Source: Nitrosomonas europaea
Lineage (GTDB): Bacteria > Pseudomonadota > Gammaproteobacteria > Burkholderiales > Nitrosomonadaceae
DNA: 26,798 nt
NCBI RefSeq assembly: GCF_900167395.1
Contig: NZ_FUWK01000036.1
Span: 1-26,798 of the forward strand
Direction: 5' to 3'
The translations under genes were made by a program, and so were the position numbers. Below are positions 2,587-17,825 of the stretch, piece by piece (within the stretch, counting starts at the first letter, position 1; every line of letters starts with the position of its first letter). The notes under the pieces were generated by a model. The model made no database searches, had not been told where the DNA came from, and saw only the letters and a program-made list of their open reading frames with translations.

Positions 2587-2595
2587 GGTATCGTC

Positions 2596-3930
2596 TCAAC
2601 GCGGTGCGGGTGCGTCGGTGCCGCGCGCCGTGACACGCCAGATGGTATTGCCCACATCATCCGCGATGAGCAAAGCACCTTCAGCATCTTCGGCCAGGCC
2701 CACCGGTGCGCCCTTCAAGGTCTTTTGATCAGCCGATGTAAAGCCGGTGACGACCGGTTCCGGTACCCCTTCGGGCTTGCCATCCTTGAAGCGCACAAAG
2801 ACAACGTCATATCCGCTCAATGGGATACGGTTCCAGCTTCCATGCTGGCCTATGAAGGCTCCACCATGGTATTTCTCCGGTAGATTGCGGCCCTGATAGA
2901 ACCACAGTCCCAGTGGTGCCACGTGCGAACCCAGGGCGTAGTCCGGGCGGATGGCCCTGGCCACGAGATCCGGACGCTGCGGCTGCACGCGCTGATCCAC
3001 ATACTGTCCGTAGTAGCTGTACGGCCAGCCATAGAACCCGCCTTCCTGGACGGAGGTGAGGTAGTCGGGTACCAGGTCTGCGCCGATTTCGTCACGCTCA
3101 TTAACGATTGCCCAGAGCTTGCCGGTCGTTGGCTCCCAACCCAATCCCGTGGGGTTTCGGATGCCAGACGCATAGATGCGGCTGGCCGCCGATTGCACAT
3201 CGACTTCGAGCACGGTTGCACGTCGGTATTCGATATCCAGGCCGTTTTCAGCTACGTTGCTGTTGGAACCGACCCCGACGTAGAGCTTCTTGCCATCGGG
3301 GCTGGCCAGCAGTGCCTTCGTCCAGTGATGGTTAACGGTACTGGGCAAGTCCGTAAACTCCACGCCGGGGTCGGACATGCGTGTCTCGCCTGGCGTGTAA
3401 CGATACTTCATGATGTTGCCGGTATTCGCGACATATAGCGTATCGCCGATCAATTGCACGCCGAATGGGGAATGCAGATTCTCGATGAAGACGTACTTTT
3501 CCCATTTACCGCTCTGGCCGGCCGCCTTGCGCAGCAGTGTGATGCGGTTGCCGCCTTTGCCACCCTTACCAGAGCGATCTTTGACGATGCTCGCGATCAT
3601 CTGCTTGGGCGAGGTGATAGGCACGGTGCCTGGGCTGTTGGCTTCGACCACCAGCACATCGCCATTGGGCAAGGTCAGAAGTTGCCGGGGGTGCATCAGG
3701 CCAGAGGCGATCTTCTCGATCGCCAACCCATCCGCGACGGTTGGCTTTTCACCTTCCGCCCACCCCGTTCTATCCGGAGTCTGGATGGGTGGAATGAAGA
3801 ACTTCTGTGCCTTGGGCAGTGGAGGATTCGCACCCGATTGCTGCGCAGGCTCATAGGTTGCCTTTTCACAGCCGGCCAGCACCATCATCAGTGCCACCGC
3901 ACATGCCTGGGCTATGTATGTTTTATTCAT
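2596..3930 (-). CDS. PQQ-dependent sugar (glucose/sorbosone-type) dehydrogenase, lipoprotein
   Basis: 444 aa. Lipobox MMVLAGC. Beta-propeller-type sequence (..GLMHPRQLLTLPNGDVLVVE.., ..SNSNVAENG.., ..GIRNPTGLGWEP..GKLW..VNERDEIG.., ..GGFYGWPY..) typical of soluble sorbosone/glucose dehydrogenase family proteins. GGGGAGG Shine-Dalgarno sequence upstream of the ATG. Confidence 0.8.
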   Translation of the reverse strand: MNKTYIAQACAVALMMVLAGCEKATYEPAQQSGANPPLPKAQKFFIPPIQTPDRTGWAEGEKPTVADGLAIEKIASGLMHPRQLLTLPNGDVLVVEANSPGTVPITSPKQMIASIVKDRSGKGGKGGNRITLLRKAAGQSGKWEKYVFIENLHSPFGVQLIGDTLYVANTGNIMKYRYTPGETRMSDPGVEFTDLPSTVNHHWTKALLASPDGKKLYVGVGSNSNVAENGLDIEYRRATVLEVDVQSAASRIYASGIRNPTGLGWEPTTGKLWAIVNERDEIGADLVPDYLTSVQEGGFYGWPYSYYGQYVDQRVQPQRPDLVARAIRPDYALGSHVAPLGLWFYQGRNLPEKYHGGAFIGQHGSWNRIPLSGYDVVFVRFKDGKPEGVPEPVVTGFTSADQKTLKGAPVGLAEDAEGALLIADDVGNTIWRVTARGTDAPAPR

Positions 3931-4363
3931 GGCGGCCTCCCCGTGTTGTGGCTTGTTGCAGCGCGCTGACGATCAAACCGATGGCGATCAAGGCCACCGT
4001 CACCGCGGAAAGCCAGACCCCTTCGGGCATAACGCCATAAGCATCCCGGGTGTGGACAAAGGCGTTCACGATAGCTGTGATGATGGCGACAAGATTGAGC
4101 CAGAAGTCCAGCTTCTCGACACGAGAACTCCGCCTGGCGGGCATCCAGACGTGAACCAAATTGATCAGGCGGGGAATGATTGCAAAGATCAGCCCGATCA
4201 CATTGAGCCAGGCAGCCGACTTGACCCAAAACACGTTGGCGTTACATGCATAGATCGCATCGAAGATCAGTGCCGCGACGAAGAACCCAAAGGGTATGGG
4301 ATTAAGAAGCGCGAACATGGCGTGTGCCAGCCGCGATCGTGTCTGTACGGGATGTGTGAGCAT
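3923..4363 (-). CDS. DUF2231-like small integral membrane protein, overlapping the dehydrogenase start by 8 nt
   Basis: About four hydrophobic helices (..ALLNPIPFGFFVAALIFD.., ..AAWLNVIGLIFAIIP.., ..FWLNLVAIITAIVNAFVH.., ..LSAVTVALIAIGLIV..). I chose ATG at 4363 (MLTHPV..), preceded by GAGG, rather than the ORF-track start at 4468. This family is often paired with sorbosone dehydrogenase-like genes. Confidence 0.65.
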   Translation of the reverse strand: MLTHPVQTRSRLAHAMFALLNPIPFGFFVAALIFDAIYACNANVFWVKSAAWLNVIGLIFAIIPRLINLVHVWMPARRSSRVEKLDFWLNLVAIITAIVNAFVHTRDAYGVMPEGVWLSAVTVALIAIGLIVSALQQATTRGGRHE

Positions 4364-5044
4364 TGGAAACCTCTGACATGAACTGAGTACGGATAATAAT
4401 TCTGACGATCTGCATTGCCTTTTGGTACCGCAAGCCGATTGTTCAATATAGACCACGCTGGTTTCCAAATGTCATGCTACCAGCCGGCCCATGTGCATTA
4501 CCTTGGTATCGTTGAGTACCGCGTTACTGTACTGACGTTTGTAAGCAAGTGACAGAGTAGCGCAGGCGCAGGAGGAGATAAAGCAGCCGTATTCAGCGAT
4601 TAAAAACCAAGAAAGATATGCTAAAAAGGTTGTTGCTCCCTTGATATCGAACGAGTTCAAATTTAATCACCTATTATTCTGTTTAAAGCAAGATTGCTGG
4701 TGGCAGTATGTTCGGTGCTCGACATATCGTGAATGAGAATAAAACTGCGGGACGAATCAAAGAGAAATGGATGTCTTGTTACAATAACAATGACTTCATC
4801 ATAAGGGTGAGGTATGCGTCGTGCGGTTGAGCAACTGGTTAAGAATGGCAAATTGCAACAAAAGGGAGTGCGCAGTGGCACACGTTATCACTTGGCCTAA
4901 CTTGGCTCAAAATTTACCTTATCTGCCACGCCTAAGCCAAGACATTGAATCATACAGGCTATCGGGCAATGTATGCCTTATTGGTGATAGCCGAGCGATA
5001 GCAAAGCGCAGCACATCTGCTACCGACGAAGAGGCTCGTCATTG

Positions 5045-7846
5045 ATGAGCGAGACTGAAGCCCAAACACGAGCCGACCTGATCGACCAGCAACTCGCGTT
5101 ATCAGGCTGGAACGTCAAAGACCCGACTCAGGTTATCGAAGAATTCGACATCCTCACTGTGCTAACAGAGGGTGTGGCCGAACCACGCGCCCCATATCAG
5201 GGCCATCAGTTCAGCGATTATGTCTTGCTGGGCAGAGACGGTAAGCCACTGGCCGTGATCGAGGCCAAAAAAACCCTCCGAGATGCCGCGCTTGGCCGCG
5301 AGCAAGCCAAGCAGTACTGCTACAACATCCAGAAGCAACTGGGCAGTGAACTGCCATTCTGCTTCTATACCAACGGCCACGAACTCTATTTCTGGGATCT
5401 GGAGAATGCGCCGCCCCGCAAGGTCGTCGGTTTCCCCACGCGCGACGATCTGGAGCGTTTTGCCTACATTCGCCGCAACCGAAAGCCGCTGACGCAGGAG
5501 TTCATCAACACCTCGATAGCCGGCCGGGACTACCAGATCCGTGCGATTCGTTCAGTGCTCGAAGGTATCGAGCAGAAAAAACGTGACTTCCTGCTGGTGA
5601 TGGCCACTGGTACCGGCAAAACACGCACCTGCATTGCCATGGTCGATGCACTGATGCGTGCAGGCCATGCCGAGAAGGTGCTGTTCCTGGTTGACCGCAT
5701 TGCCCTGCGCGAGCAGGCCTTGGCCACGTTCAAGGAACACCTGCCCAACGAGCCTCGCTGGCCCAACGTGGGCGAAAAACTCATTGCCATGGATCGCCGC
5801 ATCTATGTGGCGACCTACCCGACGATGCTCAATATCATCCGGGATGATGCGCAGCACCTGTCGCCACACTTCTTCGACTTTATCGTCGTGGACGAAAGCC
5901 ATCGTTCCATCTACAACACCTACGGCGAAATCCTCGATTACTTCAAAACCATCACCCTCGGTCTGACGGCGACGCCGACCGACATCATCGACCACAACAC
6001 CTTCCAGCTCTTTCACTGCGAAGACGGCATTCCCACGTTTGCCTACACCTATGAAGAGGCCGTGAACAACGTGCCGCCCTACCTCTGCAATTTTCAGGTC
6101 ATGAAGATTCAAACCAAATTCCAGATGGAGGGCATCAGCAAACGCACCATTTCGCTGGAAGATCAGAAAAAGCTGATCCTGCAAGGCAAGGAGGTTGAAG
6201 ACATCAACTTCGAGGGTACCCAGCTTGAAAGGCAGGTGATCAACAATGGCACCAACACCCTGATCGTCCGCGAGTTCATGGAAGAAGCCATCAAGGATGC
6301 CAACGGCGTGCTGCCGGGCAAGACCATCTTCTTTTGTGCCACCAAGGCACATGCCCGGCGCATCGAGGAAATCTTCGACAAGCTTTATCCGCAATACCAT
6401 GGTGAACTGGCCAAGGTGCTGGTTTCGGACGACCCCCGCGTCTACGGCAAGGGTGGTCTGCTCGATCAGTTCACCAACAACGATATGCCACGCATCGCCA
6501 TCAGCGTGGATATGCTCGATACCGGCATCGACGTGCGCGAAATCGTCAACCTTGTATTCGCCAAACCAGTCTATTCTTACACCAAGTTCTGGCAGATGGT
6601 CGGGCGTGGCACGCGCCTGCTGGAAACCAGCAAACCTAAGCCTTGGTGCCTTGAAAAGGAGGTGTTCCTGATCCTCGACTGCTGGGACAACTTCGAATAC
6701 TTCAAGCTCAACCCTAAAGGCAAAGAACTCAAACCGCAGTTGCCACTGCCGGTGCGTTTGGTCGGTCTGCGCCTCGACAAGATCGAGAAGGCCAACGACA
6801 GCGGCCATGCCGACATTGCCAGTCGTGAAATTGCCAAGCTCCGCCTGCAGATTGCCGCGCTGCCCAAAGAGTCGGTCGTGATCAAGGAAGCCGCCGCTGC
6901 TCTGGCGCGGCTGGACGATGACAACTTCTGGATCAGCCTCAGCCACGACCGACTGGAATTCTTGCGCGCTGAAATCAAGCCGCTGTTCCGCACTGTTTCC
7001 GAGGCCGACTTCAAGGCCATGCGTTTTGAGCGCGACCTGCTCGAATATTCGCTGGCTGTGCTCAATGAAGACAAAGAACAAGCCGAAACGATCAAGGAAG
7101 GTATCGTCGAGCAGATCAGCGAACTACCGCTCTCGGTCAGCTTCGTGAAGCAGGAAGAAGCCCTGATCCGCGCGGCGCAAACCAGCCACTACTGGGCCAA
7201 AGCCGACGAAGAGGCCTTTGATGAGTTGGTGGCCAAGCTCGGACCTTTGATGAAATTTCGGGAACAATCCACAGGCCAGGAGCAAACCCACCTGGATTTG
7301 GCCGATGAGCTGCACAAGAAGGAATGGGTGGAATTCGGCCCGCAGCACGAAGCTGTCAGCATCAGCCGTTACCGCGAAATGGTCGAGGCGCTGATTACTG
7401 AATTGACGGAGCACAACCCGGTGCTGCAGAAGATCAAGAACGGCGAGGCGGTGAACAGCCAGGAATCCAATGAACTGGCCGAACTGCTGCATGAAGAACA
7501 CCCGCACATCACCGAAGACTTGCTGCGCCAGGTTTACAAAAACCGTAAAGCACGTTTTATCCAGTTTATCCGCCACATTCTCGGCATAGAAGTGTTGCAA
7601 AGCTTCCCGGATGAAGTCAGCGCCGCCTTCGGCCAGTTCATTCGTGCCCACACCACCTTGTCCAGCCGCCAGATGGAGTTCCTCAACCTGTTGAAGAACT
7701 TCATCATCGAGCGCGAGAAGGTGGAGAAGAGAGACTTGATCAACGCTCCCTTTACGGTCATTCACCCGCAAGGCATCCGTGGCGTATTCAGCCCGGCCGA
7801 AATCAACGAAATCCTGCAGCTGACCGAAGGGCTGGTGGCATCATAA
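5045..7846 (+). CDS. hsdR: Type I restriction enzyme R subunit (endonuclease/SF2 translocase)
   Basis: N-terminal PD-(D/E)xK-type module (..FSDYVLL..VIEAKK..). SF2 helicase motifs MATGTGKT (I), VVDESHR (II), LGLTATP (III) and QMVGRGTR (VI). Long helical C-terminal domain resembling the EcoEI-type R C-terminus. It sits in an operon with hsdM and hsdS. I preferred ATG at 5045 over TTG at 5042. Confidence 0.9.
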   Translation: MSETEAQTRADLIDQQLALSGWNVKDPTQVIEEFDILTVLTEGVAEPRAPYQGHQFSDYVLLGRDGKPLAVIEAKKTLRDAALGREQAKQYCYNIQKQLGSELPFCFYTNGHELYFWDLENAPPRKVVGFPTRDDLERFAYIRRNRKPLTQEFINTSIAGRDYQIRAIRSVLEGIEQKKRDFLLVMATGTGKTRTCIAMVDALMRAGHAEKVLFLVDRIALREQALATFKEHLPNEPRWPNVGEKLIAMDRRIYVATYPTMLNIIRDDAQHLSPHFFDFIVVDESHRSIYNTYGEILDYFKTITLGLTATPTDIIDHNTFQLFHCEDGIPTFAYTYEEAVNNVPPYLCNFQVMKIQTKFQMEGISKRTISLEDQKKLILQGKEVEDINFEGTQLERQVINNGTNTLIVREFMEEAIKDANGVLPGKTIFFCATKAHARRIEEIFDKLYPQYHGELAKVLVSDDPRVYGKGGLLDQFTNNDMPRIAISVDMLDTGIDVREIVNLVFAKPVYSYTKFWQMVGRGTRLLETSKPKPWCLEKEVFLILDCWDNFEYFKLNPKGKELKPQLPLPVRLVGLRLDKIEKANDSGHADIASREIAKLRLQIAALPKESVVIKEAAAALARLDDDNFWISLSHDRLEFLRAEIKPLFRTVSEADFKAMRFERDLLEYSLAVLNEDKEQAETIKEGIVEQISELPLSVSFVKQEEALIRAAQTSHYWAKADEEAFDELVAKLGPLMKFREQSTGQEQTHLDLADELHKKEWVEFGPQHEAVSISRYREMVEALITELTEHNPVLQKIKNGEAVNSQESNELAELLHEEHPHITEDLLRQVYKNRKARFIQFIRHILGIEVLQSFPDEVSAAFGQFIRAHTTLSSRQMEFLNLLKNFIIEREKVEKRDLINAPFTVIHPQGIRGVFSPAEINEILQLTEGLVAS

Positions 7847-7891
7847 TTGAGTCTGAGCCTGCAAAATGATCTCGATTAAAAAGGACAAACC

Positions 7892-8698
7892 ATGCCAAAA
7901 ATGGATGTAAAAGGTATAGCAGTAACGGTCTACTCGGAAAATGCCATGGATTTCATTTCCCTGACCGACATGCTTCGCGCCAAAGACGGCGACTTTTTTA
8001 TCTCTGACTGGCTTCGCAACCGCAACACCGTTGAGTTTCTGGGCATTTGGGAGCAGGTGCACAACCCGAATTTTAATTATGGCGAATTCGCCACAATTAG
8101 AAGCCAGGCTGGCCTGAACAGCTACAAAATCAGCGTCAAGGAATGGGTCGCCAGGACCCATGCCATTGGGTTGGTGGCCAAGGCCGGTCGTTACGGGGGC
8201 ACCTATGCCCATAAAGATATTGCTTTTGAGTTTGGCATGTGGATCAGCGCTGAATTCAAAATTTACCTCATCAAGGAATTTCAACGCCTCAAGGAAGCTG
8301 AACAACAGCAACTCGGCTGGGACATTCGCCGCAACCTTACCAAGATCAACTACCGCATTCACACAGATGCCATTCAGACAAACCTGATCCCGCCTGCGCT
8401 GACGCAAAGTCAGATTAGCTTGATTTATGCCAGCGAGGCAGACTTGCTGAACATGGCATTGTTCGGGAAAACGGCCAAACAGTGGCGCGAAGAAAACCCC
8501 AATAACAAAGGCAATATTCGAGACGAAGCCAATGTTTCGCAGCTGGTTTGCCTTGCCAACCTGGAAACCTTGAATGCCCACTTTATCCATCAAGGGCTGC
8601 CGCAGGTCGAGCGGCTAAAAATCCTCAACCAGACCGCTATTCATCAAATGAAATTGCTGCTTGCCGACAGAAGCCTCAAGCAGTTGGACGGAAATTAA
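7892..8698 (+). CDS. KilA-N domain-containing protein inserted between hsdR and hsdM
   Basis: 268 aa. The N-terminus (..FISLTDMLRAKDG..FISDWLRNRNTVEFLGIWE..GTYAHKDIAFEFGMWISAEFKIYLIKEFQRL..) matches the KilA-N DNA-binding fold signature as I remember it. AAGGA Shine-Dalgarno sequence. The stop lies 2 nt before the hsdM ATG. Confidence 0.7.
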   Translation: MPKMDVKGIAVTVYSENAMDFISLTDMLRAKDGDFFISDWLRNRNTVEFLGIWEQVHNPNFNYGEFATIRSQAGLNSYKISVKEWVARTHAIGLVAKAGRYGGTYAHKDIAFEFGMWISAEFKIYLIKEFQRLKEAEQQQLGWDIRRNLTKINYRIHTDAIQTNLIPPALTQSQISLIYASEADLLNMALFGKTAKQWREENPNNKGNIRDEANVSQLVCLANLETLNAHFIHQGLPQVERLKILNQTAIHQMKLLLADRSLKQLDGN

Positions 8699-8700
8699 CC

Positions 8701-10362
8701 ATGCTACAGAACAACCCCGAACTCAAAAGCAAGATCGACCAACTCTGGAACAAGTTCTGGAGCGGCGGCATCAGCAACCCGCTTACCGCCATCGAGCAGA
8801 TCACCTACCTGCTGTTCATGAAACGGCTGGATGAACTTGATCAGAAGCGCCAGGCCGACGCAAGAGATGGCTGGAGCGATCCGTATCAATCCAAGTTTGA
8901 AGGCACCTGGATTCCACCCGAGGAGCGCAACTGGCCTGTAGCGGAACAACGCCCCATCGACAAACGCACGCTGCGCTGGGGCGAATTCAAGCGCATGCAA
9001 GCCGAAGAGATGCTGCAGCATGTGCAGGGCAAGGTATTCCCCTTTCTGAAAGACCTGAACGGCGCCGAATCAAACTTTACCCACCACATGAAGAATGCCG
9101 TGTTCATCATCCCCAAGCCAGCGTTGCTGGTGGAGGCGGTGAAGACCATCGACGAGATCTTCGAGGTGATGGAGAAGGACTCACGGGAAAACGGCCAGTC
9201 CTTCCAGGACATCCAGGGCGATGTCTATGAAATGCTACTGGCCGAAATCGCCACCGCTGGCAAGAATGGCCAGTTCCGTACCCCGCGCCATATCATCAAG
9301 CTGATGGCCGAACTGGTACAGCCACAGCTAGGCCACAAGATAGCCGACCCTGCCTGCGGCACGGGCGGTTTCCTGTTGGGTGCCTACCAGTACATCGTCA
9401 CCCAGCTGGCCATCAATGCAGGTACCCAAACCCTCACACCCGATGAAGACGGTTTTACCCGCACGTCAGTTGCCGCCGCATTCGATGAAAAGCGCCAAGC
9501 CATTCTGGCCAGCTCGCTCTGGGGCTACGACATCGACCAGACCATGGTGCGCCTGGGGCTGATGAATCTGATGATGCACGGCATCGAGGAGCCGCACATC
9601 GACTACAAGGACACCCTTAGCAAGAGCTACACCGAGGAAGCCGAATACGACATCGTGTTGGCCAACCCGCCCTTTACCGGCAGCATCGACAAGGGTGACA
9701 TCAATGAAAACCTGCAGCTCTCTACCACCAAGACCGAGCTGCTGTTTGTCGAGAACATCTATCGCCTGCTCAAGAAAGGCGGCACCGCCTGCGTGATCGT
9801 GCCGCAGGGCGTGCTGTTCGGCTCCGGCAAAGCTTTCAAGGATTTGCGCCAAACCCTGGTGGAACACTGCGACCTGAAGGCCGTCATCACCCTGCCCAGC
9901 GGCGTGTTCAAACCCTATGCCGGGGTCAGCACCGCCATTCTGCTGTTCACCAAGGTCTGGGGAATGAAGGACAAGGTTGCCAAACCTGCCACCGAGCATG
10001 TCTGGTTCTACGAGATGGCCGCCGATGGCTACTCGCTGGATGACAAGCGCACCAAGCAGGAAGGCTACGGCGACCTACAAGACATCATTGCCAAATACCA
10101 CGCCCGCGACGCTACCACCGACACCAATCGCACCGCCAAGTGCTTCATGGTGCCGCGAGCCGATATTGAGTCCGAGAACTACGATCTATCCCTGTCGCGA
10201 TATAAGGAAGACGTGTTCGAAGAAGTTCAGTACGACGCGCCTGGCGTGATTCTGGATCGCCTGATTCAGGCGGAAGTAGGTGATGTGGATGAAGCGGAAC
10301 TGGCCAAGGTGCAGAGTGGAATCGTCCGTGAACTATTGGAGCTGAAGGGGATGGTGGAATGA
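8701..10362 (+). CDS. hsdM: Type I R-M N6-adenine DNA methyltransferase subunit
   Basis: HsdM-type N-terminus (..LWNKFWSGGISNPLTAIEQITYLLFMKRLDE..). AdoMet motif ADPACGTGGFL. Catalytic motif IV LANPPFTG. I chose ATG at 8701. The ORF-track start at 8548 would overlap the KilA-N gene by about 150 nt. Confidence 0.9.
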   Translation: MLQNNPELKSKIDQLWNKFWSGGISNPLTAIEQITYLLFMKRLDELDQKRQADARDGWSDPYQSKFEGTWIPPEERNWPVAEQRPIDKRTLRWGEFKRMQAEEMLQHVQGKVFPFLKDLNGAESNFTHHMKNAVFIIPKPALLVEAVKTIDEIFEVMEKDSRENGQSFQDIQGDVYEMLLAEIATAGKNGQFRTPRHIIKLMAELVQPQLGHKIADPACGTGGFLLGAYQYIVTQLAINAGTQTLTPDEDGFTRTSVAAAFDEKRQAILASSLWGYDIDQTMVRLGLMNLMMHGIEEPHIDYKDTLSKSYTEEAEYDIVLANPPFTGSIDKGDINENLQLSTTKTELLFVENIYRLLKKGGTACVIVPQGVLFGSGKAFKDLRQTLVEHCDLKAVITLPSGVFKPYAGVSTAILLFTKVWGMKDKVAKPATEHVWFYEMAADGYSLDDKRTKQEGYGDLQDIIAKYHARDATTDTNRTAKCFMVPRADIESENYDLSLSRYKEDVFEEVQYDAPGVILDRLIQAEVGDVDEAELAKVQSGIVRELLELKGMVE

Positions 10363-12002
10363 TCCCAATGAAACCAACTCCATTGAGACAACTGGCGATT
10401 GTGTCAGCAGGGCAAGCAGCGCCAAAGAGTGACGAATTTTCTGACTACGGAACACCATTTGTCCGAGCAGGTAGCCTGGATAGACTGCTGTCAGGTGAAC
10501 CCGAGTCCGGCCTTGAACTCGTCAGCGAAGAAACAGCCAGGCGACGGAAGCTGAAGACCTATCCGAGAGGAACCGTTCTTTTTGCAAAGAGTGGCATGTC
10601 CGCCACCAAAGATCGCGTCTACGTCCTTCAAAACCCTGCTCATGTCGTTAGCCATCTGGCGACGCTGATCCCAAAGAGCGGAACTCACATAGACTATCTT
10701 CGCTTGGCCTTGAAGCATTTTCCGCCCTCATCGCTGATCAAAGATCCTGCTTATCCAGCCATTGGTCTCGGTGATATCGAGGATTTCAAAATCCCCACTC
10801 CTGATAGTTCCGACGCCCAAATCCGCATTGCCCATCTGCTCGGCAAAGTCGAAGGGCTGATCGCCCAGCGCAAACAACACCTGCAACAACTCGATGACCT
10901 GCTCAAGAGCGTGTTTCTGGAGATGTTTGGCGATCCGGTGCGAAATGAGAAAGGTTGGGACAAGCCCGCGTTGACAGCTTTCGGCAAGATTTCCACGGGC
11001 AATACGCCCCCGAGAAGTGAATCAGTAAATTACGATGGTGATTTCATTGAGTGGATCAAGACGGACAACATTACAGGCGATGCCGTTTGCGTCACACCTT
11101 CTACCGAGCATCTTTCTGAGATTGGGGCGAGAAAGGCAAGAACAGTGACGAGCGGTGCGCTGCTTGTGGCCTGCATCGCCGGTAGCGTCGAATCAATCGG
11201 GCGCGCAGCATTAACAGACAGAACAGTGTCCTTCAACCAGCAGATCAATGCCATCCAGCCTGGAAAGGATGTTAATCCTTTGTACTTGTATGGTCTGTTT
11301 AAGTTGTCTCGGAGCTATATACAGAGCCACGCCACGAAGGGGATGAAGAAGATTCTGACAAAGGGTGATTTTGAGAAGATCACGATGATCAAACCATCCT
11401 TCGAAATGCAAAATCGATTCGCGGTCATTTTTGAAAAAGTCGAAAGTATTAAGTCCAGATACAAACAAAGCCTCGCCGATCTGGAAACCCTCTACGGCGC
11501 ACTAAGCCAGCAGGCCTTCAAGGGGGAACTGGATCTGTCGCGCGTGCCTATTCCCGCCCAGCTTGTCGCGCCCGTTTCCCCTGGAGATCAAGCCACCGTG
11601 CCAGAACCTGTTGTGCAGACCGTGCCTGCTATTCATTTGCCCGATACCGGAAACCTGCTGGCAGCGTTGGAAAATTCCGAGGCGCGTAAAGCATTGATCG
11701 CAGAATGGCTGGAAGCCTATCGCCAACAACTGGGAGATGCACCATTTTCGGTGCAAGATTTTATGGTGGCGGTGAGTGATCGACTCACAGAATGGCTGCA
11801 GACTGTGGTGGAAGACGAAGGTGTCACTGATGAGCAGAAGAACCGTTTAGCCGAGTTCTACCCGAGCAATGATGTTGGGCTTGACGTAAACGACTATGAA
11901 CACATAAAAAAATGGGTATTCGAGGCGCTGGCGGCTGGCGCCCTGACGCAGGGGGGCAATAAAGTCGGCAACCGCATCGAACTCAAGGCTGTTCAGTCAT
12001 GA
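10359..12002 (+). CDS. hsdS: Type I R-M specificity subunit with a non-canonical C-terminal extension of about 150 aa
   Basis: Two target-recognition regions (aa ~1-150 and ~200-345). They are separated and followed by the conserved helical spacers (..AQIRIAHLLGKVEGLIAQRKQHLQQLDDLLKSVFLEMF.. and ..QNRFAVIFEKVESIKSRYKQSLADLETLYGALSQQAFKGEL..). ATGA overlap with the hsdM stop. Residues ~394-547 are extra. Confidence 0.85.
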   Translation: MIPMKPTPLRQLAIVSAGQAAPKSDEFSDYGTPFVRAGSLDRLLSGEPESGLELVSEETARRRKLKTYPRGTVLFAKSGMSATKDRVYVLQNPAHVVSHLATLIPKSGTHIDYLRLALKHFPPSSLIKDPAYPAIGLGDIEDFKIPTPDSSDAQIRIAHLLGKVEGLIAQRKQHLQQLDDLLKSVFLEMFGDPVRNEKGWDKPALTAFGKISTGNTPPRSESVNYDGDFIEWIKTDNITGDAVCVTPSTEHLSEIGARKARTVTSGALLVACIAGSVESIGRAALTDRTVSFNQQINAIQPGKDVNPLYLYGLFKLSRSYIQSHATKGMKKILTKGDFEKITMIKPSFEMQNRFAVIFEKVESIKSRYKQSLADLETLYGALSQQAFKGELDLSRVPIPAQLVAPVSPGDQATVPEPVVQTVPAIHLPDTGNLLAALENSEARKALIAEWLEAYRQQLGDAPFSVQDFMVAVSDRLTEWLQTVVEDEGVTDEQKNRLAEFYPSNDVGLDVNDYEHIKKWVFEALAAGALTQGGNKVGNRIELKAVQS

Positions 12003-13831
12003 AACTGCTCCGCCTCAAGATCACTGACTCGGCAGGCTTTCGTAGCCTGCCCTGTGGTTTCGAGCATCACTTCCGCACCGAGTGGAGCTTGCAGGAAGAA
12101 CTGGCCCAGCCCGAAGGCTTTGGGCCTTTCGTGTGTGCAGGCCCCAACGGCAGCGGTAAGTCCAACTTGCTCGAGGCGTTGGCAGCGATCTTCTTTCAGC
12201 TGGAGGTGCAGCGGGTACGCCGCAATTTCTTGCCCGATATCTTTCAGTACGACCCTGATGACAATCCGGAGGGCATACAAGAGCACGAAGGCCATCCCAA
12301 CGCCTATGAACTGGAATACCTGATCAAGTTGCCGAAGGAACACCGTTCTTCCGGTAGTCCGGAGTTCGCCCACGTGGTCGTGATCAAGGAGAGGGACAAG
12401 TCGCCGTGGCTGCGCTGGGAGAACAACGAAGCATTCCCTGTCGAGGGTTTTGCTTTCAGCACATTGACTGATGAAGAGCGTGACCTGTTATTGCCGCAGT
12501 ACGTGCTGGGCTACTCCTCCGGCGAGAATGAGATTCTCAGCCTGCCGTTCTTCAAGATGCGCTTCATCCAGTTCGATGAGTACTCGAATGCTCTGGCTCG
12601 ACAGCTTCCTTATCCCGGCCGCCCCGAAACGCGGCTGGCCTATCTGGACAGCAGCTTCAGCCAGGCCATCCTGCTGTGCAACTTGCTGTTTCAGGACGCG
12701 GCTACGCTCCAGCCCTTCCGCGAGGATGTTGGCATCGAGGCGCTACAGGAGTTCCGCATCGTCCTGCGCCGCAGTGTTCCGGTCACCCATCAGCAGGTTG
12801 CTGCTTTCACTTCGGGTGAGTACGTTTTGCCCACTGAGACGCAGGATGGTCGCTTTACAGATACCAATGTGGTTTATCTTGACCCGGAGACTGGCGATTA
12901 CCGGCTCAATCTGCTTCAGGGGCTGGAAGCGAATGAACGCACTGAACGTACCGCCATTGTCGAGAAGCTCAAGCGTTGCGCCACGCTGCATTTTCACGAT
13001 GAAGCGACCGATACCTTGGTTCTGGACTACCGGGTCAATGAAGCAACCAAGCAAGCCTTTCGTGCCAACTTCGATGATCCGGCGGGCCCAGCACTGGCCT
13101 TGTTTCAGGCCTTGCAGGTTCTGCTGACGCTCAACTTGTATAGCGTCAGCGACACCATCAAGGCCGACTTGTACCGCTCCACCAGCCACTACGTCAGTGA
13201 GACGGTACCGACGCTGGCCTCCGACCAGCGCATCATGCGTTTCAAGAATTTTTACTTCACAAAGCAGGGCGTAAAAAAGCCGATGCTGCTCAAAGATCTG
13301 TCGGATGGCGAGTATCAGATGCTGCACAGCCTCGGGCTATGCCTGCTGTTTCGCAAGACCAACAGCCTGTTCCTGCTTGATGAGCCAGAAACCCACTTCA
13401 ACCCACACTGGCGCGCCAGCTTCATCACCCGTCTGCGTCAATGCCTGCCCGATGTGGAGGGTGTGGGACAAGAAATGCTGGTCACCACCCACACGCCCTT
13501 CCTGATCTCCGACAGCAAGCCGGACAAGGTGTTGGTGTTCGCCAAGGATAAAACCAGCGGCGAGGTCAGCATCAGCAAGCCGAACTACAACACGCTGGGC
13601 GCATCGATCAACAAGATCACCATGAACACCTTCGGCAAGCGCGAAACCATCGGTGGCTATGCGCAGGTGCTGCTGGATGATTTGCGCAAGCGTTTTGAAG
13701 AAGGCCATGAGGACAGGGAAACCTTGATCACCGAAATTAACCAGCAACTGGGCGATTCGGTGGAAAAGCTGCTGTTGATCAAGACCATTCTCGACGGAAA
13801 TCAACCTGCCGATGAGGAGGCGCAGGACTGA
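11999..13831 (+). CDS. ABC/SMC-type (AAA_15/AAA_21-like) ATPase linked to the restriction operon
   Basis: 610 aa.
- Walker A: GPNGSGKSN (nt 12140-12166).
- ABC signature-like: LSDGEYQ (nt 13298-13318).
- Walker B/D-loop: LFLLDEPETHFNP (D461-E462 at nt 13379-13384).
- H-loop: TTHTP.
- An insert of about 370 aa lies between Walker A and the signature motif.
- The start ATG overlaps the hsdS stop (ATGA at 11999-12002). Confidence 0.85.
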   Translation: MKLLRLKITDSAGFRSLPCGFEHHFRTEWSLQEELAQPEGFGPFVCAGPNGSGKSNLLEALAAIFFQLEVQRVRRNFLPDIFQYDPDDNPEGIQEHEGHPNAYELEYLIKLPKEHRSSGSPEFAHVVVIKERDKSPWLRWENNEAFPVEGFAFSTLTDEERDLLLPQYVLGYSSGENEILSLPFFKMRFIQFDEYSNALARQLPYPGRPETRLAYLDSSFSQAILLCNLLFQDAATLQPFREDVGIEALQEFRIVLRRSVPVTHQQVAAFTSGEYVLPTETQDGRFTDTNVVYLDPETGDYRLNLLQGLEANERTERTAIVEKLKRCATLHFHDEATDTLVLDYRVNEATKQAFRANFDDPAGPALALFQALQVLLTLNLYSVSDTIKADLYRSTSHYVSETVPTLASDQRIMRFKNFYFTKQGVKKPMLLKDLSDGEYQMLHSLGLCLLFRKTNSLFLLDEPETHFNPHWRASFITRLRQCLPDVEGVGQEMLVTTHTPFLISDSKPDKVLVFAKDKTSGEVSISKPNYNTLGASINKITMNTFGKRETIGGYAQVLLDDLRKRFEEGHEDRETLITEINQQLGDSVEKLLLIKTILDGNQPADEEAQD

Positions 13832-14892
13832 TGCTGATTCCGTACACCTATGTGCCGCATCAGATGGAGAAGATGCAGGCGTTTATCGATTTCATCTTTC
13901 ACGAGATTTGGTGCAAGGCACCGGCAAGCGGCCCGTTTGGCCTTCACCTGTTCAACGCCAATGCGGAGTTGCGCGAAGTGATGGAAGCGTTCTATTACTC
14001 CGACGCGCAAGGTGCCGATTTCTTTTATGGCCATGTGGAACGAATCTATGGCTTGTTTTCGGCGCTTACTTTCGTGCAGATAAGCCAGTTTCAGCAGTGG
14101 TACCTGGGCAATAACGACCTGGAGAAAGTGTGCGCCAATGCTCCTGCTGCACAGATCGTCCGGTACGCGGACATTGCCACCACCCACCAAGACCTTGCTG
14201 ACCAACTTGCCTCCTTTTTCAAGGGCTTGTACTCACAGTCGCTGCTTGGTCTTGCTACACTACGCGCCAAGATCGGAGATATAGACGATCACTATCAAGC
14301 CTTTGTTGCGGCGAACAAGATGGGGAAATGTCCTTTCTGCGGCATTGGAGACATCAAGGGCGAGCATCACAGCAAACGCGAAGCCTACGATCACTACCTC
14401 CCCAAAGCGCTATATCCATTCAATTCTATCAATTTCCGCAACCTTGCTCCGGCGTGCCATGAATGTAACAGCACCTATAAGCTAAGCAAGGACCCTGCGC
14501 ACAATGCGGTTGGGCGGCGCAAGGCCTTTAATCCGTATGCCGCAGCGGATCATGCTATTCAAATACAGGTCGCTCTGCCGCATGCGGACATTGACGCACT
14601 GACGCCTGCTGACATCACGATGCACTTCGGCCCTGTGGAGCTGGCAGAGGAACTCGAAACCTGGAAAGATGTATATGGCATTGAGGAGCGCTACAAGGCC
14701 AAATTTTGTGCCGAAAACGACGGAAAATATTGGCTGACACAGGTGCTGGACGAGTGGAAAGAGGACGGTCGAGACCCTGCCGATTTCATGACCACACTGG
14801 TGCGGCAGGTGCAAAAGAACCCGTACGCAGAGTGCAATTTCCTCAGAAAGCCTTTTCTCGATGCTTGTCAGCAGGTCGGTATTTTTAAATGA
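13831..14892 (+). CDS. HNH-motif nuclease with unassigned N- and C-terminal regions, partner of the upstream ATPase
   Basis: 353 aa. The zinc-ribbon/HNH core spans nt 14329-14469: C167-P-F-C170 ... D187-H188 ... N204 ... C209-H-E-C212-N. I cannot assign aa 1-165 or 220-353 to any family. GAGGAGG Shine-Dalgarno sequence at 13814-13820. The start overlaps the ATPase stop (TGATG at 13829-13833). Confidence 0.75.
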   Translation: MLIPYTYVPHQMEKMQAFIDFIFHEIWCKAPASGPFGLHLFNANAELREVMEAFYYSDAQGADFFYGHVERIYGLFSALTFVQISQFQQWYLGNNDLEKVCANAPAAQIVRYADIATTHQDLADQLASFFKGLYSQSLLGLATLRAKIGDIDDHYQAFVAANKMGKCPFCGIGDIKGEHHSKREAYDHYLPKALYPFNSINFRNLAPACHECNSTYKLSKDPAHNAVGRRKAFNPYAAADHAIQIQVALPHADIDALTPADITMHFGPVELAEELETWKDVYGIEERYKAKFCAENDGKYWLTQVLDEWKEDGRDPADFMTTLVRQVQKNPYAECNFLRKPFLDACQQVGIFK

Positions 14893-15120
14893 TTCTCGCA
14901 GTTGGCTGCACCAGTGCTTATAAAATCAGAAAGCTCGTTCGTATAAGGTTAACTTTCTTAGTGGATTTTTTGCTTAAAACATCAGTGTTGACACGATTTC
15001 TGGGCATAGCCGCACGAGTGTTCCAGTAATAACTGCTTTTACAACATCACGGATTTAGAGATGATCAGTTATAGCCGACGTTTCTGCAGCAACGGCAATC
15101 ATGATTCTAAGCAGGCTACC

Positions 15121-15129
15121 TGTTACAAT
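15121..15129 (+). promoter_or_regulatory. Putative extended -10 promoter element (TGTTACAAT) driving the riboswitch leader
   Basis: TGnTACAAT lies about 6 nt upstream of the first base of the predicted riboswitch P1 stem. The -35 region is weak (ATGATT/TTCTAA). Confidence 0.4.
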
Positions 15130-15134
15130 TTGCC

Positions 15135-15239
15135 GGTCATTGGGGAGTAGCCGCTCTTCGTTTCGAAGGGGCTTACGTCAACATACTTGACCGGCAGGTC
15201 ATGGCGTAAGCGGTTCTAAGCCTGGCAAGACCTTTGACC
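15135..15239 (+). promoter_or_regulatory. yybP-ykoY (manganese) riboswitch
   Basis: Conserved blocks are in the right order: uuGGGGAGUAG (15141-15150), CAACAUAC (15179-15186) and GGCAAGACC (15224-15232).
- P1: GGUCA (15135-39) pairs with UGACC (15235-39).
- Hairpin CUCUUCG-UUU-CGAAGGG.
- Helix CUUACG (15172-77) / CGUAAG (15205-10).
- Hairpin UGACC-GGCA-GGUCA.
The downstream gene belongs to a family known to be controlled by this riboswitch class. Confidence 0.8.
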
Positions 15240-15306
15240 ACAATGCCTCCGATTTGGCCGGGGAGGCGTTGTGGTCAATCGTCTGTAAACCGGCCGGAGA
15301 ACATTG

Positions 15307-15885
15307 ATGGAATCCTTCCTCGTTTCGACCGGAGTCGTTGCCCTTGCCGAGATTGGCGATAAAACTCAGCTCCTCGCTTTCCTTCTTGCTGCCCGCTTCA
15401 AAAAACCGCTTCCCATCATGCTGGGTATTCTGGTTGCAACGCTCATCAATCATGGTCTCGCTGGTTTCCTCGGTGCCTGGATCACGGCGACTGTCAGCCC
15501 TGACATTCTGCGCTGGATCCTGGGCCTTTCGTTCATCGGCATGGCAATCTGGACGATGATCCCGGATGAGATCGAACAAGAAGAAACTTTGATCGCCGGG
15601 AAATTCGGTATCTTCGGTGCTACGCTGATCACTTTTTTTCTTGCTGAAACAGGTGACAAGACTCAGATTGCGACGATTACAATGGCTGCTCACTACGGAA
15701 CTCCATTCATGGTCGTGATGGGTACGACGCTCGGCATGCTGATTGCCGATATCCCGGCCGTTTTTGCCGGTGAAAAATTGGCGACCAGAATTCCGATGAA
15801 ACTCGTTCACTCGATTGCTGCCGCGGTTTTTGCCTTACTGGGTGTTGCGACATTGCTCGGCGCCGGATCAAAGCTCGGGTTCTGA
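15307..15885 (+). CDS. GDT1/TMEM165 (UPF0016) family cation (Mn2+/Ca2+) transporter
   Basis: Two copies of the family signature E-x-G-D-K-T (AEIGDKTQ and AETGDKTQ) sit in a six-helix membrane protein. GGAGA Shine-Dalgarno sequence at 15296-15300. I preferred ATG at 15307 over TTG at 15304. Confidence 0.85.
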   Translation: MESFLVSTGVVALAEIGDKTQLLAFLLAARFKKPLPIMLGILVATLINHGLAGFLGAWITATVSPDILRWILGLSFIGMAIWTMIPDEIEQEETLIAGKFGIFGATLITFFLAETGDKTQIATITMAAHYGTPFMVVMGTTLGMLIADIPAVFAGEKLATRIPMKLVHSIAAAVFALLGVATLLGAGSKLGF

Positions 15886-15914
15886 ATCGGATCCGATTTT
15901 CTTTTTAATCCAAC

Positions 15915-17090
15915 ATGACAACAGAAAACAATCAACGGACAAAAATCCCGGCTGGTATTTGGGTGCTCGGCTGCGTGAGTATGCTGATGGATATTTCCTC
16001 AGAGATGATCCACAGCCTGCTGCCGCTGTTCATGGTAGGCACACTGGGTGCAAGCGCCTTTGTCGTGGGTCTGATCGAAGGTCTGGCTGAATCGACAGCA
16101 CTGATCGTCAAGGTTTTTTCGGGCGTGTTGAGTGACTGGTTCGGTAAACGTAAGGGTCTGGCGGTATTCGGCTACGCTTTGGGTGCGTTGACCAAACCGC
16201 TTTTTGCCATTGCGCCGGGTATCGGCGTTGTGCTGACAGCACGTCTGCTGGATCGGATCGGCAAGGGCGTGCGTGGTGCGCCGCGTGATGCACTGGTGGC
16301 CGATATTGCACCGCCTGAAATACGTGGCGCAGCGTTTGGTCTTCGGCAGTCACTGGATACGGTGGGCGCTTTCCTGGGGCCACTGCTGGCCGTTGGTCTG
16401 ATGCTGTTATGGGCCGATGATTTTCGAGCGGTATTCTGGGTGGCCGTTGTTCCGGGGCTGCTCGCGGTTGCACTGCTGCTGTTTGGTGTGCATGAACCTG
16501 ATCGCCACGTCGGTGAAAAACGTATCAATCCGATTCGCCCGGAAAACCTCAAGCGATTGAGTAGCGCATACTGGTGGGTGGTCGGCGTGGGAGCCGTTTT
16601 TACATTGGCCCGATTCAGTGAGGCATTCCTGGTACTGCGGGCTCAGCAGAGTGGAATTGCCGTTGCGCTGGTGCCATTGGTGATGGTGGTGATGAATGTC
16701 GTGTACTCAGCATCGGCCTATCCTTTCGGCAAGCTGTCCGATCGGATGAATCACAAGCTGCTGCTGGCACTGGGCCTGGTGGTACTGATCGCCGCCGATC
16801 TGATTCTGGCACTGGATGATCACTGGATAACGGTACTCGCTGGCGTTGCATTGTGGGGCGCTCACATGGGCATGACGCAAGGTTTGCTGGCGACGATGGT
16901 GGCCGATGCGGCCCCTGCTGATCTTCGGGGTACCGCTTTCGGATTCTTCAATCTGGTGAGTGGTATTGTCATGCTGATCGCCAGTGCAGTAGCCGGCCTG
17001 CTGTGGGATCAGCTCGGAGCATCGTTCACTTTCTATACGGGTGCCGTGTTCTCTGGCGTTGCATTGCTTGGCTTGCTCAAAAGGTTTTGA
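15915..17090 (+). CDS. MFS transporter
   Basis: 391 aa with about 12 hydrophobic segments. MFS motif-A-like sequences (..LSDWFGKRKG.., ..LLDRIGKGVRGAPRDA..). Confidence 0.75.
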   Translation: MTTENNQRTKIPAGIWVLGCVSMLMDISSEMIHSLLPLFMVGTLGASAFVVGLIEGLAESTALIVKVFSGVLSDWFGKRKGLAVFGYALGALTKPLFAIAPGIGVVLTARLLDRIGKGVRGAPRDALVADIAPPEIRGAAFGLRQSLDTVGAFLGPLLAVGLMLLWADDFRAVFWVAVVPGLLAVALLLFGVHEPDRHVGEKRINPIRPENLKRLSSAYWWVVGVGAVFTLARFSEAFLVLRAQQSGIAVALVPLVMVVMNVVYSASAYPFGKLSDRMNHKLLLALGLVVLIAADLILALDDHWITVLAGVALWGAHMGMTQGLLATMVADAAPADLRGTAFGFFNLVSGIVMLIASAVAGLLWDQLGASFTFYTGAVFSGVALLGLLKRF

Positions 17091-17102
17091 TCAGAACGAT
17101 GA

Positions 17103-17825
17103 TTACTTGTCCCGCAAATGGGTGCGTAAACGGGAAATGGCCTGAGTATGCAACTGGCAGACACGTGATTCACTGACTCCCAGCACTTTACCGATTTCGC
17201 GCAGATTCATTTCCTGCTCGTAATACATCCCCATGACCAGTTTTTCCTTGGCAGGCAGTTTCTCGATTGCGGCCACCAGCAGTTCCCGCAGATTCTTCTC
17301 CAGCAGCCGATCCAGCGGCTCGTTACTCTGGTCGCCGCGTAGACGATCGAGAAAATGATCTTCTTCGTCTTCCTGAAAATCCTCGTAATAGATCAGTTGT
17401 CCGCCACCCGCTTCCTGCAGCATCTCCTGGTATTCGACCAGTGGCAGATTCATTTCATTGGCGATTTCCTGTTCACTGGGCGGGTAACCAAGGCGCTGTT
17501 CCAGTGCACGCATGGCGGTTTCTATCTGGCGCATTTTTCTGCGCAGGCTGCGCGGTAGCCAGTCTGCTTCTCTCAATTCATCCAGAATCGAGCCACGAAT
17601 ACGCTGGGCAGCGTAGCTCTCAAACTGACGGCCATAAGAACCTTCATAACGGTTGATGGCATCCAGCAGGCCGATCATCCCCGCTTGGATCAGATCATCG
17701 ACCTGAACGCTGGCCGGCAGTCTGGCCATCATGTGATGGGCAATCCGTTTGACCAATGGTGTAAATTCCGTAATGAACTGGTCTTTGTCAACGATTCCTG
17801 TGTCGGTATACATAGGCTCTCTCAC
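17103..17825 (-). CDS. fliA: Flagellar RNA polymerase sigma factor sigma-28
   Basis: Region 2 (..VDDLIQAGMIGLLDAINRYE..FESYAAQRIRGSILDELR..DW.PRS), region 3, and the region 4 HTH (..NLREIGKVLGVSESRVCQLHTQAISRLR..). It lies directly downstream of flhF-flhG. The GTG start at 17825 overlaps the flhG stop (GTGA). An alternative ATG is at 17813. Confidence 0.9.
   Translation of the reverse strand: MREPMYTDTGIVDKDQFITEFTPLVKRIAHHMMARLPASVQVDDLIQAGMIGLLDAINRYEGSYGRQFESYAAQRIRGSILDELREADWLPRSLRRKMRQIETAMRALEQRLGYPPSEQEIANEMNLPLVEYQEMLQEAGGGQLIYYEDFQEDEEDHFLDRLRGDQSNEPLDRLLEKNLRELLVAAIEKLPAKEKLVMGMYYEQEMNLREIGKVLGVSESRVCQLHTQAISRLRTHLRDK

Follow-up and report, generated by a model that had tools for sequence, protein, structure and literature searches.

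Conserved pairing of an ABC-type ATPase and an HNH nuclease at the 3' end of type I restriction-modification operons: a candidate accessory anti-phage module in Nitrosomonas europaea

PrrC, which resides in the type I restriction-modification (R-M) system EcoprrI, is activated by Stp of phage T4, and PARIS is activated by Ocr; the two have been grouped as "RM guardian systems" in a 2025 review (PMC12707154). Modules consisting of an ATP-binding cassette (ABC) ATPase and a nuclease embedded in type I R-M operons have been described by comparative genomics (bioRxiv 10.1101/2024.01.29.577857), and dyads of an OLD-type ABC ATPase and an HNH protein have been proposed as back-up effectors (PMC12839542). 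In Septu PtuA restrains PtuB, and in PARIS AriA restrains AriB (summarised in PMC12065111). Here we describe a gene pair encoding an ABC-type ATPase and a predicted HNH nuclease in a type I R-M operon of Nitrosomonas europaea. The operon was analysed in positions 1-26,798 of contig NZ_FUWK01000036.1 (assembly GCF_900167395.1), and this whole stretch of 26,798 nucleotides (nt) is hereafter referred to as the window.

The pair is evolutionarily locked to the type I operon, as it is almost never found away from methylase and specificity genes. It resembles Septu in its components and PrrC in the logic of its genomic setting, and it is a member of neither. The module is conserved and probably defensive. 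In the more specific reading that we prefer, to which we give about an even chance, the pair would be an accessory anti-phage effector dependent on its host type I R-M system, that is, a guardian in the style of PrrC and PARIS built from Septu-type parts. The genes and motifs concerned are listed below in window coordinates; lengths are given in amino acids (aa).

5045..7846, + strand: hsdR, type I restriction subunit (Pfam ResIII/DEAD helicase, HSDR_N and C-terminal EcoEI_R_C; PD-(D/E)xK motif intact)
7892..8698, + strand: KilA-N gene in the slot between hsdR and hsdM (Pfam KilA-N, E = 1e-21)
8701..10362, + strand: hsdM, N6-adenine methyltransferase subunit (Pfam HsdM_N and N6_Mtase)
10359..12002, + strand: hsdS, specificity subunit (Pfam Methylase_S), its stop overlapping the ATPase start
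10363..14667, + strand: block exchanged in a sister Nitrosomonas locus (variable parts of hsdS, ATPase gene, HNH codons 1-279)
11999..13831, + strand: ABC-type ATPase gene, 610 aa (NCBIfam TIGR04435)
12140..12163, + strand: Walker A motif GPNGSGKS of the ATPase, residues 48-55 including K54
13298..13390, + strand: ABC signature LSDGE (residues 434-438) to Walker B LLDEPE (residues 459-464) of the ATPase
13490..13492, + strand: H-loop histidine H498 (TTHTP) of the ATPase
13831..14892, + strand: predicted HNH nuclease partner, 353 aa (HNH core motifs, predicted structure)
14329..14481, + strand: predicted HNH catalytic core, C167 to K217 (residues invariant among homologues)

By its Pfam matches, the host operon contains the components of a type I R-M system, namely an HsdR helicase-nuclease, an HsdM N6-methyltransferase and an HsdS specificity subunit. 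Six genes follow one another on the + strand in the order hsdR, kilA-N, hsdM, hsdS, ATPase gene and HNH gene. The hsdR open reading frame (ORF) is listed from TTG 5042, with the first ATG as the next codon, and the hsdM start was set at ATG 8701 from the starts of homologue alignments and the sequence; the stop of the KilA-N gene ends 2 nt ahead of this ATG. The two ORFs of 610 and 353 aa that the initial annotation had reported after hsdS, with overlapping codons, were confirmed at 11999-13831 and 13831-14892. The hsdS stop lies on the ATPase start in ATGA (11999-12002), and the ATPase stop lies on the HNH start in TGATG (13829-13833). The position of the pair at the 3' end of a type I operon was also correctly recognised there, while the KilA-N gene at 7892-8698 had been missed. 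The stop/start overlaps from hsdS through to the HNH gene suggest translational coupling, and the pair is laid out for co-transcription as the 3' end of the hsd operon. Promoter and terminator scans of the window gave scores no better than those of shuffled sequence.

A genome scan with the ATPase, using one genome per species, identified relatives in 302 species, and 80 of these loci were fetched (56-93% identity; Proteobacteria, Chlorobi, Verrucomicrobia, Lentisphaeria, Nitrospirota and others). Wherever the contig allowed, hsdS was directly upstream of the ATPase gene, and hsdR and hsdM were ahead of hsdS wherever the contig reached, locus L051 excepted. The HNH gene was found 3' of the ATPase gene in all 78 loci with downstream DNA. 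The junctions were conserved as well: the overlap between hsdS and the ATPase gene was 4 nt in 47 of 79 loci, with 76 of the 79 falling within 15 nt, and that between the ATPase and HNH genes was 1 nt in 72/78. Protein searches returned thousands of homologues for both proteins, and because of these homologues and the conserved junction overlaps neither ORF is a product of chance. Distant relatives of the HNH protein (26-31% identity), including one from the Firmicute Desulforamulus, kept the five-gene order. On plasmids of Priestia, Sphingobium and Hymenobacter, remote relatives followed hsdM, hsdS and a TIGR04435 ATPase gene in this order. Overall, the pair was directly 3' of hsdM-hsdS in approximately 170 loci (Proteobacteria, Firmicutes, Bacteroidota, Chlorobi and others) with one exception; the sole copy seen without hsd genes, an Escherichia coli locus (L096), was cut by an IS3 element. 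The initial annotation had proposed co-expression of the pair with the type I operon and had called for a survey of synteny with hsdS among homologues. The order and overlaps conserved in these loci bear out the former, and the survey returned conserved pairing and hsdS adjacency across several phyla. The annotation pipeline PGAP routinely names the trio "subunit S", "restriction system-associated AAA family ATPase" and "HNH endonuclease", and its ATPase name was seen in E. coli as well as on the plasmids. At the Sphingobium plasmid pKN1 locus (L092, 1809-3526), genes for an 8xMP membrane protein and a GIY-YIG nuclease were present between hsdM and hsdS.

The linkage was also examined starting from the R-M system: metagenomes were scanned with the window HsdM (73-94% identity), which yielded 80 fetched loci, 58 of them with enough downstream DNA. 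Among these close HsdM relatives the pair was present in 46/58 and absent in 12/58, and three further loci of the 80 had ATPase remnants of only about 100-130 nt. The pair-less loci carried other genes 3' of hsdS, often with overlapping codons. In L136 (9867-15439), genes continuing from hsdS with overlapping codons encoded Gabija (GajA, 1085 bits; GajB, 872 bits), a PIN-domain protein and a PDC-M14A-like protein, so that here an autonomous defence system has become part of a type I operon. SoFic occupied the slot in L153, a DRT UG36 reverse transcriptase in L170, and a DUF6731 protein in L122. In L121 (9876-12482) and L131 (9927-12545), an ABC ATPase of approximately 870 aa, resembling SMC, LmuB and mad3 proteins, replaced the pair and overlapped the hsdS stop by 4 nt; this ATPase is a single-gene candidate effector.

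Locus L131 represents the same Nitrosomonas chromosomal site as the window, with 93-94% identity over window positions 1700-10362 and 14668-17741. In place of window 10363-14667 it contained a different hsdS and an 872-aa ATPase, and a 3' stub of the HNH gene remained. This swap, the HNH stub and the pair-less relatives therefore indicate that the R-M system needs no pair, that the pair is the older occupant at that site, and that defence cargo is exchanged in a slot at the 3' end of hsdS. Target-recognition domains of hsdS were swapped in the sister loci L097 and L131. L097, an activated-sludge Nitrosomonas contig that is 97-98% identical to the window, differed from it only in the first hsdS target-recognition domain (10363-10812), which points to a specificity swap in the recent past. 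Between hsdR and hsdM lay a second variable slot, filled in about 17 of 64 related loci and empty in the rest. Its contents were KilA-N in the window and, elsewhere (L013, L064, L078, L054, L087), Bro-N, RhuM with Fic, Schlafen/AlbA_2 with HATPase_c_4 and Fic-like_C, or PDDEXK_3; the KilA-N gene was found in a minority of related loci only.

The restriction subunit itself was not always retained. Klebsiella loci (L005 and L006) and E. coli strain 61 (L095, 5769-11849) carried an hsdM-hsdS-ATPase-HNH cassette, and hsdR was absent from the surrounding 9-10 kb (on the hsdM side, 5-10 kb); in strain 61 the cassette spans NZ_CP048326 2824441-2830521. This four-gene cassette was situated at the edge of integrative and conjugative elements (ICEs), beside ardC, an anti-restriction gene, and a conjugation module of the VirB type, and the element of strain 61 was near a tRNA-Asn gene. 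The four-gene form was widespread in Klebsiella, where it belonged to a 90% cluster with 266 member sequences. The cassette was present in 96 of 5,426 complete E. coli genomes, most of which resembled the strain 61 copy, and a five-gene form was also seen in E. coli on another ICE; strain S1-NGR-02-A is one carrier of the five-gene cassette (NZ_CP145679 3588860-3597762). The Hymenobacter plasmid pHsw2 (41.5 kb) had no hsdR anywhere and kept the pair. Thus, hsdR is dispensable for keeping the pair, and hsdM, hsdS, the ATPase gene and the HNH gene stay intact. In HsdR itself, the nuclease residues D59, E74-x-K76 and Q88...Y92 (QxxxY) were invariant in 62 homologues. Loss of the HsdR nuclease with the HNH protein as its replacement was considered and ruled out on this ground: HsdR, where encoded, has an invariant nuclease motif, so the HNH protein does not compensate for a dead HsdR.

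The four proteins have diverged at different rates. In 52 complete loci the mean pairwise distance grew along the operon, from 0.15 for HsdR and 0.18 for HsdM to 0.32 for the ATPase and 0.45 for the HNH protein. Divergence of the HNH protein correlated with that of the other three at r ~0.43, compared with 0.71-0.83 among those three, and HNH proteins differed by up to 63% between cassettes at 4% HsdR distance. The HNH proteins formed three deep clades, in which the first ~30 residues and the catalytic core were the most conserved parts. At least three deep HNH alleles, with identities of 50% or less, were exchanged between cassettes whose HsdR proteins were 94-96% identical (L045 versus L067, L012 versus L041 and similar pairs). 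This quick divergence and allele shuffling fit conflict-driven selection.

The window ATPase matched TIGR04435, "restriction system-associated AAA family ATPase", with 811.7 bits (E = 3.5e-244; cutoff 300) and from end to end (protein residues 1-600 against profile positions 1-566 of 568). Pfam returned generic ABC-type families only (AAA_21, AAA_15 and SMC_N). The top PADLOC match was the PtuA model PDLC00293 (E = 5e-51, 172 bits) in two partial stretches, the best of them at residues 421-585, and AriA, PDC-M01A and others followed below PtuA. The nearest relatives in the PDB by sequence were PtuA, the PtuA of retron I-A and AriA, over about 100 C-terminal aa only (PtuA ~450-560). All ATPase and HNH motifs named in the initial annotation were present. 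In 77 homologues the ATPase residues G48, G51, G53, K54 and S55 were invariant, as were S435, D436, G437, E438, D461, E462 and H498. The protein is thus assigned by its sequence to the ABC ATPases of the OLD/PtuA-like group, every motif for nucleotide binding and hydrolysis being invariant, and by the same measure it is only distantly PtuA-like. An unassigned insert of about 370 aa had been proposed for it, which proved too large: motifs that are invariant in the family, for instance YSSGENEILSLPFFK, occur within residues 165-230, and the stretch without assignment therefore narrows to roughly 230-430 (about 200 aa). The C-terminal end consists of the ABC C-lobe followed by a helical tail.

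The partner contained the HNH motifs C167xxC170, D187-H188 and C209xxC212-N213. C167, C170, D187, H188, C209, C212, N213 and K217 were invariant in 78 representatives (to ~26% identity) and in 75 locus copies. N204 was conserved in at least 90% of the representatives and invariant in the locus copies, and further near-invariant positions occurred in both regions flanking the core. Of the two histidines previously suggested for mutation as H188A/H210A, H188 was invariant, while H210 varied across the family (H/N/Y/S/D/T) and is a poor target because it is not conserved; it is no candidate for a catalytic residue. An AlphaFold2 model based on 78 homologues (predicted local distance difference test score, pLDDT, 96.8; predicted template modelling score 0.92) showed helical domains at the N terminus (1-161) and the C terminus (269-348), and between them a ββα-metal core that bears a Cys4 site (165-217) and a small β unit (244-267). 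From sequence and model, the partner is predicted to be a nuclease of the ββα-metal (HNH) type that has a Cys4 zinc site and whose catalytic residues are invariant.

Profile searches placed the core of this protein and little else. No Pfam family matched at its cutoff or at E<0.1, and no NCBIfam model matched. When the model was compared with PDB and BFVD by Foldseek, no match fell below E = 0.5, which means that there is no global neighbour and does not speak against an HNH core; a PDB profile search with the 78 homologues found no PtuB chain and only chance coiled-coil matches. The PADLOC models PDC-M01B, PDC-M62B and PtuB matched only the HNH core, in 65-78 of the 78 family representatives, and seven PDC-M01/PDC-M62 models in all matched 78/78 members, with E-values down to 3.5e-20. 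For the window protein the matches were E = 1e-15 over 81/285 profile positions (PDC-M01B) and E = 1e-13 over 140/328 (PDC-M62B), and the PtuB hidden Markov models (HMMs) covered residues 164-226 only (59/247 profile positions, E = 2e-8). The family comprised 156 clusters at 50% identity (E <= 1e-30, full-length matches to ~29% identity). No HNH-family homologue was found in a phage genome collection. The window HNH protein was 100% identical to a Nitrosomonas database entry.

Among described systems, Septu, taken here to include the PtuAB effectors of retron I-A/Ec78, shares with the pair its two-gene layout of an ABC ATPase and an HNH protein. However, the PtuA matches were limited to the two ends of the window ATPase, the PtuB matches to about 60 HNH residues, and the NCBIfam PtuA equivalog NF041760 scored 44.8 bits against a cutoff of 500. 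In contrast to a PtuB-type partner of about 200-250 aa, the window HNH protein has 353 aa with extra N- and C-terminal helical domains. Septu normally acts as an autonomous system, with 0.7% of Septu systems embedded in Hma (bioRxiv 10.1101/2024.01.29.577857), whereas the pair is tied to hsdS. The earlier view of a Septu-like logic that is not classical Septu was thereby upheld. Full-length PtuA/PtuB profile matches, which would have made this a known system, were not obtained, and the ATPase matched TIGR04435 over its full length.

PrrC in EcoprrI, and RloC, resemble the pair in being ABC-ATPase-controlled nucleases found almost only within type I R-M operons, which can do without them (bioRxiv 10.1101/2024.01.29.577857; PMC12707154). 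PrrC, however, is one polypeptide with an anticodon-nuclease domain that cuts tRNA-Lys, whereas the pair has a separate HNH protein, presumably a DNase. The sequence relationship of PrrC to the window ATPase is limited to the ABC fold, and no PrrC or RloC model was among the top PADLOC matches of the ATPase. In PARIS, Ocr, an anti-restriction protein, is sensed by the ABC ATPase AriA, which then sets a nuclease free, a concept that the pair may share by analogy. The AriA HMM matched window ATPase residues 393-504 only (E = 9e-18), and AriA chains were among the PDB matches. The partner AriB is a Toprim/DUF4435 protein, while the HNH protein here is without Toprim, and PARIS is autonomous rather than tied to hsdS.

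PDC-M01 and PDC-M62, PADLOC candidate pairs of an ATPase and an HNH-type protein proposed through "guilt by embedding" in R-M, BREX and DISARM, a logic that applies equally to the window pair, were the top PADLOC matches of the HNH protein, and PDC-M01A matched the C-terminal third of the window ATPase (E = 1e-15). However, these matches extended over only about a quarter of each profile and of the protein, so the family is distinct from those models, and the window pair is 3' of the operon and not between hsd genes. Gabija shares an OLD-type ABC ATPase, and a complete Gabija occupied the identical post-hsdS position in L136; the window pair differs in having neither an OLD-like_TOPRIM match nor a UvrD-like helicase gene after the ATPase. 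For the methylation-associated defence system MADS, the MAD3 equivalog NF047739 gave 35.4 bits on the window ATPase against a cutoff of 420.

That the ATPase goes with restriction systems is already curated knowledge through TIGR04435, and the theme of an ABC ATPase and a nuclease nested in R-M or BREX systems as back-up effectors has been published as comparative genomics (bioRxiv 10.1101/2024.01.29.577857; PMC12839542). TIGR04435 is a "hypothetical equivalog", an annotation only, whose name records the restriction association and which is silent on the HNH partner. The initial annotation had suggested a distinct or undescribed variant. This appears to hold for the HNH partner, which has neither a curated model nor a fold neighbour, and does not fully hold for the ATPase, because it is a full-length member of the curated, association-named TIGR04435 and the trio is annotated by PGAP. 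A literature search found no study of the TIGR04435 family or of the hsdS/ATPase/HNH pair. In the literature searched, the conserved HNH partner family of about 350 aa, in a fold context of its own, the strict and asymmetric dependence on hsdM-hsdS, the hsdR-less four-gene form and any experimental test appear undescribed.

The case for a guardian that depends on the R-M system is built on the full-length TIGR04435 match, the nearest defence ATPases (PtuA, AriA and PDC-M01A), the PDC-M01B, PDC-M62B and PtuB matches of the HNH core, the invariant catalytic residues, the fixed gene order with its overlaps, the asymmetric dependence, the dispensability of hsdR, the divergence of the HNH protein and the published precedents. 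By analogy with the PtuA oligomer and its PtuB, the ATPase would oligomerise and hold the HNH nuclease in check. As in PrrC/EcoprrI and PARIS, the complex may read the state of the methylase-specificity core (M2S) or its attackers, such as the DNA mimics Ocr and ArdA or Stp-like peptides. Once restriction is subverted, the ATPase would release or activate the HNH nuclease, which would cut DNA and stop the infection. Docking and sensing probably involve the two helical domains that are specific to the HNH family, one at either terminus, and the α/β insert of about 200 aa in the ATPase. Several points weigh against this scheme. Physical coupling of the pair to HsdM/HsdS, and the trigger, are inferred from PrrC and PARIS. 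The structure prediction of the ATPase, made from a shallow alignment, had a pLDDT of 48 and was unusable, and the oligomer and sensor architecture is drawn by analogy. The strict linkage to hsd genes could be due in part to the pair having no promoter of its own, and co-transcription alone is no proof of functional dependence, because the same slot hosts autonomous systems such as Gabija. Further, the hsdR-less forms are equally compatible with the pair being an M2S restriction nuclease.

In the latter role, the pair would be a second restriction module: M2S at an unmethylated site would recruit the ATPase and HNH protein to cut, beside HsdR or instead of it in hsdR-less elements. The intact hsdM-hsdS-ATPase-HNH cassettes without hsdR on many E. 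coli and Klebsiella ICEs and on the Hymenobacter plasmid speak for it, as do the constant adjacency to hsdS, with an overlap of its stop consistent with translational coupling, and an ATPase divergence that tracks that of HsdR and HsdM (r ~0.7). We nevertheless consider this role unlikely, as the HsdR nuclease motif is intact and invariant, so that no nuclease is missing, and in close relatives of the R-M system the pair is absent or has given way to unrelated cargo. In addition, no precedent is known for an ABC ATPase-HNH unit using M2S, and the hsdR-less ICE copies may all stem from one deletion. A bolder form of the idea, which appears quite unlikely, is that hsdM-hsdS-ATPase-HNH is a self-sufficient R-M enzyme of new architecture, in which M2S directs the ATPase and HNH protein to unmethylated DNA rather than, or besides, the superfamily 2 translocase HsdR. 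This would explain the persistence of intact hsdR-less cassettes on ICEs and plasmids.

Alternatively, the pair could be an autonomous Septu-type system that travels as cargo of a mobile R-M cassette, with its own phage trigger and no need of Hsd proteins. Such cargo is familiar in the R-M clade, whose slot also carries full-length Gabija, DRT UG36 and SoFic; the top defence-database matches were PtuA and PtuB-type models, and shuffling of the HNH alleles is independent of the other cassette genes. Still, in about 170 loci from several phyla, down to ~26% identity, the pair was never without hsdM-hsdS bar the IS-truncated copy, whereas most Septu, Gabija and DRT systems are located outside operons of this kind (bioRxiv 10.1101/2024.01.29.577857). 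We hold autonomy to be improbable on balance. A non-defence housekeeping role for R-M, such as resolving stalled type I translocation complexes, alleviating restriction once DNA has been damaged or stabilising the cassette post-segregationally, would agree with the strict R-M linkage, the occurrence of the pair on mobile elements and the action of ABC ATPases of the SMC/Rad50/RecF group in DNA repair. We regard it as very unlikely, given that 12/58 relatives in the R-M clade do without the pair, that quick HNH divergence and allele shuffling are typical of conflict genes, and that the nearest relatives are all defence proteins.

Upstream of the operon, the window contained genes for a TonB-dependent receptor, a GSDH-type dehydrogenase and a DUF2231 protein on the opposite strand. 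A DDE transposase fragment (DDE_Tnp_1_3, C-terminal part only) was present at the left edge (6-323, + strand). Downstream of the operon were a Mn2+ riboswitch with a GDT1-family transporter gene, a gene for a major facilitator superfamily transporter, and then the flagellar genes fliA, flhG, flhF, flhA and flhB. The riboswitch (yybP-ykoY type; 15130-15302, + strand) scored 114 bits against a gathering score of 45, and the GDT1/UPF0016 cation transporter gene (15304-15885, + strand) was directly 3' of it. An ORF of 203 aa on the strand opposite GDT1 (15199-15810) is probably spurious because it has no Pfam match and overlaps mostly with the GDT1 gene. No tRNA genes were found in the window, and its base composition showed no clear island edge.

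The 3' exchange slot of hsdS in this R-M clade, with its Gabija, DRT, SoFic and SMC-like ATPases, is a hunting ground for new systems. If the pair is a guardian of its R-M system, it would represent a third widespread design against phage anti-restriction, after PrrC and PARIS, and one in which the HNH effector cuts DNA. It would, moreover, provide a natural case of a Septu-type ATPase-nuclease machine that takes another immune system, and not the phage directly, as its input. The pair bears on how immune systems guard one another, in a form that is readily testable in E. coli.

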